Of a stretch of DNA of 64,000 nucleotides, positions 9,749 through 45,305 are shown in pieces. Source of the stretch: Eledone cirrhosa (taxonomy: Eukaryota); assembly GCA_964016885.1 (NCBI GenBank), contig OZ024742.1, forward strand, positions 48,794,001 through 48,858,000, written 5' to 3'. A model generated the notes under the pieces. That model was not told the DNA's origin. It made no database searches and saw only the letters and a program-made list of their open reading frames with translations. The position numbers and the translations under genes were made by a program. Numbering within the stretch: the first letter of the stretch is position 1; each line of letters starts with the position of its first letter.

Positions 9749-9945
9749 AACGAAGGGGGTGTGGTAAGGAACCAGATGGACCATAACGCACCAGAGTACT
9801 CAATACTTAGAGTAGTAGAGTGGGTAATAGGAAAAAGTTTAACCCCGAGGGCAGAGCTCAAACCGTTTCGACGGCTATTTCTGGACTCCAGAAATAGTCG
9901 TCGAAATGGCTTGAGCTCTGCCGTCGGAGTTAAACTTTTTCCTAT
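9749..9945. mobile_element. Family F1 hairpin mini-element (palindrome 9827-9945 plus ~78-bp unique tail), TA-flanked
   Basis: Arms ataggaaaaag..gtttcgacggctatttctgga / tccagaaatagtcgtcgaaa..ctttttcctat; related copies at 21573, 21829, 40443, 45142. Confidence 0.9.
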
Positions 9946-10439
9946 ATATATATATATATATATATAAATATATATATATATAGTGATAATTAGAGTTCTC
10001 GAATAAGGTTCAAAACGATAGGAGTTCAAAAACTATAGAAACCATAAATGCAAAGTCTATAGACTTTTAAATTTGCAAAATTCAGCTTCTGTACACCACA
10101 TATTAGGGCGACCGTTCGAAGACGATGAACCCCTTAGCGCAAATTCCCAAAGGGTATATGAAATAGTGAATAGAAAATACAAAACTGATTTCATATCCGT
10201 GAAGGAACAGATACAAATAAATAAGCACTTGAGTAATTTGACATCACAGCTCCACATACAAACGGCACCCATCAATTCCATGGATGTAAAGTAATATCAG
10301 CTGAAAACGAAATAAACGCATATTCAGCTAGTGGTCCTGGCAAAGTCACTACACTTCCTCTTCCAGAACTTCACAACTAACTCAACCCAGGCCACTCTGT
10401 CCACTTTCCCGTCCTTAAGGTTACTTCACTTGATTTTCC

Positions 10440-10548
10440 CGACTATTATTTATAGTCTTTGCCTTTCATCCTTATGGGGTCGATAAAATAAAGTACCAGT
10501 AATACACTGGATAATTTCTGGCCTTGTGCCAAAAGTAGAACAAATTAT
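10440..10548 (+). mobile_element. tRNA-SINE 3' part
   Basis: ctttgcctttcatccttatggggtcgataaaataaagtaccagt..ggccttgtgccaaaagtagaac. Confidence 0.85.
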
Positions 10549-11799
10549 TTATAGTGAACAACTGATTATTTTTCTGTGTGAATATGTGTATGTGTGCTTT
10601 TGTGCGTGTATATACATATATATTCCTACAACCGTATGTCGTTCTTAATCGTGAACTAGATCCACTCACACATTTGCATTCATATGTATATATATATATA
10701 TATATATATATATATATATATATATATATATATATATACGTATATATATATATATATATATATATATATATATATATGCGTATGCGTGTGCGTGTGTGTG
10801 TGTGTATGCTTGCGTAGGTATGCGCCTGTATGATTGCATTTGTATATAAAATGTATACATACATAAATCTATGTTTACACATGTGTGCATGTGGGTTATA
10901 TTGGGATATGTTAACGTAAAGTAAGGTGTTGAAAATCTTTCGAAATTTGGCAAGAATTTCCATGCCGTTAACACTGTTTTTCAGAGATGTGTTATGAAGT
11001 TGTAATAGCTTAAACCTTTTTCAAAATATACTGGTTGAATGGATGATGGTAGAGAAATGAGAGATGGAAAATAGAGAGACTTATGTAGTGAAAATGAAAG
11101 GGTATTGTGAAAGAAAGGGAAAATGTGCAAGACAATATAAACAGGTGATAAAAATAACAGCAAAAATGGGACTAAGGAAGTCTCTGTAAAAACAAAGAAG
11201 TATAAAGTAAAAATAATAGCTAATATCAAATTGAAAGACATTATATAACAATAGAAAAAGCTAGTAGAAATGTGTGAAAAGGTAAAAAACGTGTTTGTTT
11301 TCACTCATTTTTTTATGACGATTGTAAATGTATATATCAAGCAGCTGAAAGAAGACACGAAGAGGAAAATGAAAGTGAATTAGGAAGAACAAACAAGTAA
11401 AAAATAAACATAGTAGGGTGGATTGCAATAAAGAGAAACAGAATGAAAGAAACCGAGAAGGACAAAGAGATAGAAAATACTCAGAAAATTATATATATAT
11501 ATATATATATATATATATATATATATATAAAGAGAGAGAGAGAGAGAGATAGATAGATAGATAATCATCCACAGACAGCTTAAAATGTCATTCCAAATAA
11601 CAATTTAGTTCATTTGCCAAATGTCTGTAAGATTCCCCCTCCTCCCCAACATCCACCTTCCTTTTGGCAGCAGAGTCAACAGGCAGACGACTGTACATCC
11701 AACCGAAAACAGATGTGGTTTAGGTCTTCCTTACTTATGAGTTTGTTATTTCTTTATATATTGTTTTGTGTAGTATTGTTTTTCTCCTCCACCCAGTAT

Positions 11800-42436: not shown

Positions 42437-44812
42437 AATAGAGTTAATATAATAGAAGCGAATCATAGAATTTAATGAAATGGCTGGTACAAAATTGCCT
42501 GATTAGTAAAACTACCAAAACGTAGGGGTATGTTATTTTACTGTCTCAAAATTACTTCATATAATCTAAATTATCAACGTATATTTTATACATAGATGGG
42601 CTTTTCCTGATCGTTTACCAATTACCTTATTACGAAAAGATCAGTCAGCAAGGTTCTTAAACAAAATGCTTCAGGAAGAAAATGCAACAAAAGGGGACAG
42701 ATTTTTCGTCCGACTTTCACTAAATCTACTATCATTCACCCGTATAAATAAGATTTGTGTTTTTTGATAATTAATGGGTAGAAGTGGGTGATGGATTGGC
42801 AGAATCATTAAGGCATCAAGCAAAGTTTTTGTGGTTTTCTCCAGCTATTTCTTCCCTGTATTCAAATACACATCGTTATATTCATGAATATATCAATATT
42901 TTCGAAAATGACTAAACATATTCGTATTTCGATATATATCAATTCAAAGAAGCCAGACGGCGTTCTCTGTATCTCTGTCTCTGTCTGTTTGTCTCTGTCT
43001 GTCTGTCTCTCTCTCTCACTCACTGTCTCTCTCACTCTCTCTCTCTCTCTCCCTCTCTCTCTCTCTCTATCTCCCCCTCTCTCTATCTCTCGCTATGTAT
43101 ATATATATATATGTATATATATATATATATATATATATATACATGTATATGTATTACACAAACACACATTATATGTATATATATGAGTGTGTGTATATAC
43201 ATATTTACGGGTTTATGTGTATGTTTTCTGCTTATGTTCATGTGTGTGTATGGGCTTGTTCTTGTGTCAGAGAACGAGGGAGAGAAAGTAAGAGAAAGAG
43301 AGAGAGAGAGAAAGAGAGAGTGACATAGGGGAGGAGTGATAAACAGCATTTATCATATTGCAAATCGAGAATTCAATAACTATGCCAGTTTTGACAGAAC
43401 TGTTAGAGAATTTTCCTATCATTTCGAAATGAGGTTCAATCTCTCCATTTGTAAAATGGTAATAACAGAGTTGAATGATAGATTTCAGATCTATGTCCGC
43501 TGGGCACTGTCAGAAAAATATTGGTTTCTCACTTATGTCTGCAACAGTAAATGTGTTAGTGCCAATGGGTCGAAGAGGCAGAGACAAAGAAACATAGAAT
43601 GAAAGACCGATAGAGAAAAGGAAAGAAAACGTCGCGTAAGATATTAGCCAATGAAATCAAATGGCTTTCCACTGACATGACTGTAAGTAACATAACACGT
43701 AAATGGCCCGTAAAGATGGTTTTTCGACATCCGTTCTGTTTCAACAATTAACAAGTTGAAAAAGTTATTCGACAAGAAAAACATTAGTTTTTATTTATTT
43801 GTTCATTTGTTTGTTTGTATTTTTGTGCTGTTTGTTTTGTTTTGAGAACTTAGATAATGGCAGTTAATTACACAAATGGAATAACTACTTGTGCATACCA
43901 CCTTTGCACATGTGTGTATGTATGAAAATACTCACTCACACACATACGCACACACACACACACGCACACACATACATGTATATATGTGTATATGTGTGTT
44001 TATAATGCATAGAAAACTAAGAAGAAGAGGTTTGAGACATTTCAATTGACTTACAAATGTTTCAATAAGAAAGATGAAAAATGTAAATGGTGAAAAGCCG
44101 GCAGAGCGTTCTTTAACTGACGTTTACGCTTGATATATATATATGCAACCACATAGCCCGCTATTTTATATATATATATATATATATATATATATATATA
44201 TATATATATATATATATGTATATAATTATATAAATATATATATATATATACATAAATATATAAATATATATACACATATATATAAATGTATAAATATATA
44301 TATATATATATATATATATATATATATATATATATATATATATATATATATAAATATACATATTGTGATTGTCATCGTGGTGCATGTGATAAACAAAAGT
44401 TTGGTTGGTGGGGGGTGATAATTATAATGTTGTCGTTAATCGGGTTTGAAACAGTTTTTCCACGTCACCAAAGAGTAGGTCTTTATATCATATGTCACAT
44501 TTTTGGCAATAACACCTGTTAATTTACATATTACGGCTTACAGGATTAAATTTAACGATAATGATGTGTAATGTGATAAAAAAATAAAAATTGTCAGTTT
44601 TTCACATTTGGCTTGTTTGCTTGGTATTTTTGTAGCGAGTATATATGGGACATTTAATACCAAACTATGAAACGGTCCTTGCAAGCTACTAGTATCAATC
44701 ACATATATTTAGTATTGTGTGGAAGTTTCCCACTAATAATACGTAGTGAGAGAACATGCAATATTGATGATACAGGTAAATAAATATAGGAACAACTAGA
44801 TTCAGATTTCGT

Positions 44813-44971
44813 AACGTGTGTGAATGTTGAAATATATATATTTACAATTCAATGTAATAACCGGACACCAGTCTGAATTTGCTGCCCCTACTAAAGGTGA
44901 AGCAAATTCAGACTGGTGTCTGGTTATTACATTGAATTATAAATATATATATTTCAACATTCACACACGTT
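44813..44971. repeat. 159-bp palindrome (71-bp arms, 17-bp loop) next to (TA)n
   Basis: aacgtgtgtgaatgttg..gaatttgct / agcaaattc..caacattcacacacgtt. Confidence 0.9.
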
Positions 44972-45141
44972 CGCATATATATATATATATATACATGTAT
45001 GTATACACACACACATACACACACACACACACACATATATATATATATATATATATATATATATATATATATGTGTGTGTGTGTGTGTGTGTGTGTGTGT
45101 GTGTGTGTGTGTGTGTGTGTGTGTGTGTGCGTGTGTGTGTG

Positions 45142-45305
45142 TAGGAGAAAAGTCAGGACCCCGACGGCTGAGCTCCGGCCGTTTCGACAGCAAGATCCAA
45201 ACTGTTCAGATCTAGCTGTCGTAACGGCCGGATTTCAGCCGTTGGGGTCCTGTCTCTTTTCCTATTACCAACTCTACTAAGTATTGAGTACTCTGGTGCG
45301 CTACG
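45142..45305. mobile_element. Family F1 hairpin element, diverged subfamily, opposite orientation
   Basis: Palindrome 45142-45264 centred on gtttcgacagc..gctgtcgtaac; tail ctaagtattgagtactctggtgcg. Confidence 0.85.

Follow-up and report, generated by a model that had tools for sequence, protein, structure and literature searches.

Palindromic repeats in TA microsatellites of Eledone cirrhosa as probable one-tailed, head-to-head insertions of a non-coding retroelement

Insertions of Penelope-like retroelements are described in Craig et al. 2021 (PMC8557442, which cites Evgen'ev and Arkhipova 2005) as 5'-truncated and accompanied by an adjacent inverted copy, likewise 5'-truncated; one end bears a tail of 30-40 bp, and a bias towards (TA)n is described there as well. 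Here we report on F1, a family of short palindromic repeats found in a stretch of 64,000 nucleotides of the Eledone cirrhosa genome (assembly GCA_964016885.1, contig OZ024742.1, forward-strand positions 48,794,001 to 48,858,000; hereafter the window, numbered from its first letter). F1 resembles the insertions of endonuclease-bearing (EN+) Penelope-like elements in its strong 5' truncation, inverted head-to-head copy, tail at one end and (TA)n bias, all of which are also displayed by PLE-1, a resident Penelope-like element. In contrast to EN+ Penelope-like elements, F1 has no open reading frame (ORF), its tail measures 79 nt rather than 30-40, and most copies are only ~200 nt long.

The purified PAc protein of Anolis Poseidon cleaves and extends both strands of an AT-rich target. 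Reverse transcription starts at two internal RNA sites, which do not differ between the strands in vitro, and the tail is the stretch between them; a hammerhead located ~90 nt upstream of the start is not needed (Frangieh et al. 2024, PMC11167929). Judging from genomic sequence, F1 would likewise feature extension of both target strands and two RNA start sites with the tail between them, but whereas PAc uses the same start sites on both strands in vitro, each site appears once per pair in F1 (21/21). Hammerhead motif pairs on opposite strands, 100-700 bp apart, are described in Cervera and de la Pena 2014 (PMC4209133). Gene-less elements thought to ride Penelope-like machinery through a shared terminal part include metazoan retrozymes, which form tandem arrays with intact hammerheads according to a 2026 preprint (10.64898/2026.07.22.740005), and MRC1 of Chlamys as presented in Craig et al. 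2021. F1 differs from retrozymes in occurring as dispersed single copies, not as tandem arrays, and in being mirror-imaged with half a hammerhead-like motif, and from both retrozymes and MRC1 in that its 3' end was not found to resemble that of any autonomous partner. In twin priming of human L1, too, priming on the RNA occurs from the second target strand, and the 5' part ends up inverted. There, the inverted piece comes from another segment of that RNA and no palindrome results, whereas both F1 primings are proposed to copy the same segment.

The F1 palindromes probably arose when a non-coding retroelement inserted into (TA)n as 5'-truncated, dead-on-arrival copies, a Penelope-like enzyme having used both cut target strands as primers to reverse-transcribe the same RNA. 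A 38-mer from the F1 tail module has 5,767 exact matches in the genome (reversed control, 0) and a 29-mer from the arm has 12,894, about two arms per tail. Two samples were analysed. The tail-anchored sample consists of the first 100 matches of the 38-mer in genome order, of which 90 were used, the exclusions being four matches that form two tight clusters and the six at the end of the list. The arm-anchored sample consists of the first 30 matches of the 29-mer, which correspond to 25 distinct elements. A script called 64 of the 90 tail-anchored copies palindromic, one call (L056, the reference long copy) being false; 19 lack the right (mirror) arm, although about five of them show short or atypical mirror arms by eye, and 7 are long. 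An inverted 5'-truncated copy is thus joined head to head in 63/90 tail-anchored and 21/25 arm-anchored elements. In all 21 arm-anchored pairs the tail is present on exactly one side, and zero- or two-tailed pairs were not found among them; tails occur on both sides in 2/64 in the tail-anchored sample.

The outer ends are fixed. By a strict test, flanks are pure TA repeat on the left in 62/90 and on the right in 38/57 cases. Of the 90 copies, 63 begin with the tail end AACGAAGG or with one of its near matches AACAAAGA, AACAAAGG and AACGGAGG, and the outer end of the right, tail-less arm (...TTCCTAT) lies at the same base in 48/64 and within 72-83 in 57/64, continuing into the module in only 2/64. 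F1 therefore has a fixed 3' end and variable 5' truncation, with inner ends ranging from R79 to beyond R200.

The window contains the following F1 features, for which the evidence is given in parentheses.

9749-9827, minus strand: copy a tail module, 79 nt, AACGAAGG...GGGTAA on the plus strand (38-mer genome matches)
9828-9887, minus strand: copy a tail-side arm, from TAGG to ...CTGGACT (self-alignment, arm comparison)
9888-9945, plus strand: copy a tail-less arm, ending ...TTTTTCCTAT at (TA)n (self-alignment, arm comparison)
21573-21651, minus strand: copy b tail module (motif scan)
21652-21790, no strand assigned: the two arms of copy b, identical across the outer 55 nt (self-alignment, arm comparison)
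21829-21961, minus strand: copy c, tail module and single arm cut at ...GGCTATTTCT, without mirror arm (motif scan)
40443-40521, minus strand: copy d, solo tail module with (TA)n on both sides (motif scan)
45142-45264, no strand assigned: copy e palindrome, divergent subfamily (centre near 45203/45204)
45265-45305, plus strand: copy e tail module, in the orientation opposite to copies a-d (self-alignment)

A preceding sequence-only reading had placed palindromes at 9827-9945, 21651-21790 and 45142-45264, and all three were recovered there, with self-complementarity in 108/119 (copy a), 136/140 (copy b) and 102/123 (copy e) columns. Its statement that the copies differ while the arms of each share private variants also holds, as the outer 55 nt of the arms show identities of 0.91 (a), 1.00 (b) and 0.85 (e) within copies, versus 0.63-0.82 across them. 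It had not listed copy c and the solo module d, which emerged from a motif scan, nor the 79-nt module, which flanks every window palindrome on one side only. The tail-less arm of copy a begins 3 nt short of the full arm. In copy b, the arms stop at GGACT (21711) and resume at AGTCC (21730), with an A11/T7 filler (21712-21729) between them, and copy c lies 38 nt away. The outer end of copy e at 45142 abuts (TG)n; its tail module, from the outer end of which ~38 nt are gone, abuts (TA)n.

The arms of some pairs are unequal. In 5/21 arm-anchored pairs, the copy on the tail side extends no farther than part of the tail itself (R25-51), and the other arm nevertheless holds at least 50 nt of arm sequence, and in the tail-anchored sample the tail-less arm is longer by at least 15 nt in 10/64, the reverse occurring in 3/64. 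In unequal-arm pairs, neither arm is a copy of the other, and the tail-less arm was never a template for the module. Moreover, the single copies L166 and L172 end at the tail-less border, showing that such an end can exist by itself.

The sequence-only reading held that the palindromes are always centred on a putative stem II. In the window, the centre lies between TTTCGACRGC and its mirror in all three copies (pattern matches at 9866+/9897-, 21690+/21742- and 45182+/45215-), but genome-wide the claim fails. The farthest parental coordinate falls in a hot spot at 135-149 in 40/64 palindromes (the GGACT of the arm ends at 139) and varies from ~90 to 173 in the other 24. The centre sequence varies among copies, showing filler of 0-18 nt, duplicated neighbouring sequence or runs of A or T, and 61/63 sampled centres are of no recurrent type; no (TA)n was found between the arms in the inspected copies. 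The apparently recurrent centres CTGG-ACT-CCAG and its mirror (6 + 6 of 30) are a selection artefact of the best copy-a matches, occurring in 1/63 of the unbiased sample. An extra C follows GGACT in 11/22 arms and a G precedes AGTCC in 11/29, a possible cap signature that is ambiguous, since a partner arm 3 nt short gives the same letters. Runs of A and T are located exactly at arm ends, as in the copy b filler and in a T13 run before AGTCC in L172; such runs would be expected from untemplated A addition at the end of run-off complementary DNA (cDNA).

The arms of one copy agree more than those of different copies. In 53 palindromic copies of the unbiased sample, the arm-versus-arm mismatch within a copy is 8.9% (212/2382), compared to 14.4% when left arms are set against right arms of other copies (standard deviation 0.6, 200 permutations). 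Non-consensus variants are shared within a copy at 3.7%, against 1.3% expected, and three or more discordances at seven lineage sites were found in 2/49 copies versus 52% of random pairs. Asymmetric changes are spread evenly (104 in the left arm, 102 in the right). Per-arm decay amounts to 3.8% at non-CpG and 8.0% at CpG positions, and that of the single-copy module to 2.3% and 6.8%. As arms decay no slower than the single-copy module, arm-to-arm gene conversion, the alternative offered in the sequence-only reading, is rejected. The arms were alike at birth and have decayed freely and independently since, and gene conversion is neither needed nor seen.

Non-palindromic parents, the existence of which the sequence-only reading had proposed to check, were identified. 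In L045, L056, L067, L080, L107, L166, L173 and L174, the arm continues past GGACT into common further sequence. L094 and L096 are long copies from copy e's divergent subfamily and continue differently; the long copies of this type have only 407 nt in common. Long copies and stubs carry the same subfamily variants, and pieces of the parent-specific continuation are present in the stub arms of L047, L066, L125 and L133. Taken together, these data mark the stubs as truncated products of single-armed templates: the palindrome is made anew at each insertion and is not inherited from one ancestral palindrome. The far end of the ~1,475-bp long copy L056 reads ...CAAACACTCTT at (TA)n on the opposite strand and resembles the CAAACGTT end of PLE-1; this element may be a head-to-head composite of two elements.

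In the mechanism that we propose, the RNA would be the strand ending ...CCUUCGUU. Copying at one target end would start at the RNA 3' end, yielding tail and arm, whereas at the other end it would start 79 nt upstream, at ...CCUA|UUACCC, yielding the tail-less arm. Both cDNAs would head towards the 5' side of the RNA, often halting at the same point in the helix II loop described below, and would then be joined head to head with short fillers. The template of both arms would be a single RNA or sister RNAs with a common source, so that source variants would be shared at birth and followed by independent decay. That a single RNA serves both ends, the least certain step, is suggested by the strict use of each start once per pair and by the common lineage of the two arms. 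A concerted two-ended reaction, in which one RNA bridges both cut ends of the TA microsatellite and is copied twice from start sites 79 nt apart, as opposed to independent primings, is put forward tentatively, at somewhat less than even chances.

The sequence-only reading had likened the palindrome centre to the stem II and GAAA of a hammerhead ribozyme, with the CUGANGA side replaced by the mirror arm. This interpretation stands in part. In the RNA-sense strand of the long copies, the elements occur in type I hammerhead order (helix I, UUGAAAA, helix II, GAAA, helix III, GUC). Helix II, of ~10 bp, has a bulged base at its 5' end and a 34-nt loop, within which the hot spot falls; helix III has 5 bp. 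Over the 25 proposed pairs, 92.5% of cells pair, versus 34-61% when the partners are slid. A stub, holding only the 3' half of the motif, presumably could not fold as a ribozyme. On the other hand, the core is UUGAAAA and the canonical CUGANGA core, with C3 and G8, was not found: the eight long copies carry U3 and A8 (six copies, one of which also has G5 replaced by A), C3 and A8 (one copy) or U3 and G8 (one copy). GAAA and GUC are present, and a published U3-A8 core variant, covariant in Schistosoma Penelope-like elements as reported in Cervera and de la Pena 2014, fits. No compensatory changes support the proposed fold among the long copies, and no Rfam ribozyme was matched at the gathering score in the window, at E<=10 in 21500-23200 or at E<=1 in a long copy.

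The long copies thus resemble Penelope type I hammerheads in the order of helices, the U3-A8 core and a helix II whose 5' end carries a bulged base, but differ in the 34-nt helix II loop and in a stable 5-bp helix III, instead of a palindromic one of 1-2 bp. They also differ in lacking an Rfam match and covariation, the fold being predicted from sequence, and the stubs in retaining the 3' half alone. Arm ends do not cluster near R98, where the cut is predicted, in keeping with the in vitro result that cleavage is dispensable. In our reading, the hammerhead-like motif is no more than a bystander. Our guess is that the hot spot reflects an RNA 5' end in the loop, generated by a transcription start or by a cut at a U|A bond.

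The resident Penelope-like element in the window adjoins copy c.

21966-23037, plus strand: PLE-1, 5'-truncated copy (end of the reverse transcriptase region, internal deletion, GIY-YIG domain, 3' untranslated region (UTR))

This copy ends CAAACGTT at (TA)n, without a tail, and F1 sequence is not part of the PLE-1 unit. A PLE-1 element at L013 has a full open frame of 905 aa with RVT_1 (56.7 bits) followed by GIY-YIG (28.3 bits), the canonical domain order of an endonuclease-bearing Penelope-like element; partial tandem copies forming pseudo-long terminal repeats were also seen there. The 182-aa ORF at 21918-22466 is the C-terminus of a longer protein, with at least 151 scored matches, out of 21,238 first-look candidates, in the 3.0-Gb genome; searched alone, this ORF has no Pfam match. 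It is chimeric: the start codon and the first 14 codons lie in the F1 arm and run in frame into the C-terminal region of PLE-1, which carries the internal deletion, probably as a chance product of the junction.

In (TA)n, PLE-1 gives rise to stubs that, like those of F1, are one-tailed and joined head to head. A 30-mer near its 3' end has 2,471 exact matches, and among the first 100, neighbours at most 5 kb apart have their 3' ends outward ('-+') in 17 cases, the opposite ('+-') in none, and are in tandem in 5. In 6/7 pairs CAAACGTT at (TA)n closes one arm, and its partner continues for 44 nt; the seventh is uninformative. In contrast, no reverse transcriptase or GIY-YIG ORF was found in F1 and its long copies, and tblastn with PLE-1 was empty upstream of long copies of both types; F1 could therefore be no more than a non-autonomous element that depends on another. 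When the F1 module is aligned locally with the PLE-1 3' module and tail, the similarity is not significant, 132/500 shuffles scoring as high, and the common end motifs CGTT and ACCTCCT are thus only suggestive. Copy c, which after 4 nt (ATAT) meets the 5'-truncated PLE-1 head to head, may be a mixed F1/PLE-1 pair. L051, in which an F1 module and full arm are followed by one C and then by an apparent coding sequence of another retroelement on the same strand, is possibly another.

The 3' UTR of PLE-1 (22885-22925) contains CTGAAGA, a 5-bp hairpin and, following these, GAAAATTTA|GG, an arrangement reminiscent of a minimal Penelope-type hammerhead. A 30-mer across this motif has 7 matches among 12 PLE-1 loci, and a search of the motif against Rfam returned nothing even at E<=10. 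L138, a short PLE-1 pair, is truncated at the position where the motif is predicted to be cut.

Several other origins of the palindromes were weighed. The sequence-only reading had favoured snap-back, in which cDNA folds on a hairpin at its 3' end and primes itself, so that the second arm copies the first. Snap-back accounts for private variants common to both arms and for arm ends more equal than chance; the parent has a natural hairpin, GGCTATTT...AAATAGCC, at the hot spot, and about ten copies begin the second arm at AAATAGCC, beside the loop. Nevertheless, we regard it as unlikely. It is contradicted by the strict one-tail rule and by arms holding sequence that the partner lacks: in the five pairs in which the tail-side copy ends in the tail, that copy has none of the other arm's sequence, and the ten longer tail-less arms point the same way, provided that the inequalities are original rather than due to later deletions. 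Furthermore, a tail-less arm cannot template a tail, and second arms copied by snap-back should often enter the tail, yet 57/64 stop at the arm/tail border and 2 enter it, the border being an independent end in the single tail-less copies L166 and L172. Priming on the natural hairpin predicts that the whole 34-nt loop is present once at the apex, as is seen in 0/93 inspected copies. An old palindromic master, copied whole and with arms kept alike by gene conversion or hairpin selection, is largely refuted and seems highly improbable. A copy-a query returned 3,361 first-look candidates, the best 40 scored matching nearly all of its 197 nt at 91-95%, and the only Rfam matches on the palindrome were sub-threshold look-alikes of microRNA hairpin models, as such a master would suggest; however, in 61/63 palindromes the centres differ by copy in indels and fillers, the arms decay no slower than the tail, asymmetric changes are evenly divided, and single-armed parents carry the same subfamily variants.

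A cut-and-paste DNA transposon, i.e., a miniature inverted-repeat transposable element (MITE) or foldback element with a TA target-site duplication, would explain a near-perfect palindrome with TA-flanked TAGG...CCTA arms. We give this hardly any credence, as symmetric terminal inverted repeats are not what is found: the 79-nt module is one-sided in 21/21 pairs, one end is fixed and the other truncated, long copies extend from one arm only, the centre varies between copies, and a resident retroelement with reverse transcriptase and GIY-YIG domains has the same anatomy. It is also very unlikely that the arms are unrelated insertions of one family brought together by chance in a (TA)n hot spot. 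Such tracts are indeed hit repeatedly, as illustrated by copies b and c and by the ATAT between copy c and PLE-1. Chance neighbours, however, would not explain why pairs occur only with 3' ends outward (17 to 0 in PLE-1, and '-+' in all listed close pairs of the arm 29-mer), why the one-tail rule holds in 21/21 pairs, why both arms of a pair belong to the same lineage, or why no (TA)n is left between them.

Several points weigh against priming of both cut strands on one RNA by a Penelope-like enzyme. No autonomous element carrying the F1 3' module was found, so the identity of the enzyme is inferred, and PLE-1, with the same target and anatomy, shows no significant 3'-end similarity to F1. The 79-nt tail is twice the described 30-40 bp, and the strict one-each start rule is not predicted by Frangieh et al. 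2024, in which the strands did not differ in vitro. Arm ends fall within 5 nt of each other in 32/61 pairs, versus 20.2 +/- 2.9 with shuffled partners, which snap-back also predicts; the arm lengths are genuinely coupled, though weakly so away from the hot spot (3/24 pairs within 5 nt). Unequal arms could partly stem from later deletions, and copy c and PLE-1 could be two separate insertions 4 nt apart. The assumed RNA strand and its ends are deduced from the genome.

Other repeats were noted in passing. A ~190-nt repeat with a tRNA-like B box (GAGTTCAAATCC), ending ...AGAAACAGTT at (TA)n, directly adjoins the F1 tail in L015, L037 and L048 and may be a further user of the same (TA)n-directed machinery. 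Two large inverted repeats of the window, one at 28145-29060 (arms 285 nt, 93%, spacer 346 nt) and one at 24590-25170 (arms 209 nt, 96%, spacer 163 nt, with a relative near 39966-40368), could be insertions of the fold-back kind from other families.

F1 represents a known insertion architecture in a new and very abundant non-autonomous family. To our knowledge, integration of Penelope-like elements is unsolved, and the system of Frangieh et al. 2024 is the only one in vitro. Where the inverted repeats and the one-sided tails of these elements come from is named as an open question in Craig et al. 2021. F1 provides a large, easily scored set of minimal insertion products, which places three constraints on any model: one tail per pair, one source for the arms, and sequence in one arm that is missing from its partner. 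Together these regularities argue against both snap-back and independent priming. F1 also defines a 140-nt RNA module that is apparently sufficient for mobilisation. For annotation, it accounts for thousands of (TA)n-flanked hairpins that could be mistaken for MITEs, microRNA precursors or ribozymes. If the concerted copying of a single template is true, the thousands of stubs in this genome would naturally record where copying starts and stops and how cDNAs are joined to each other.

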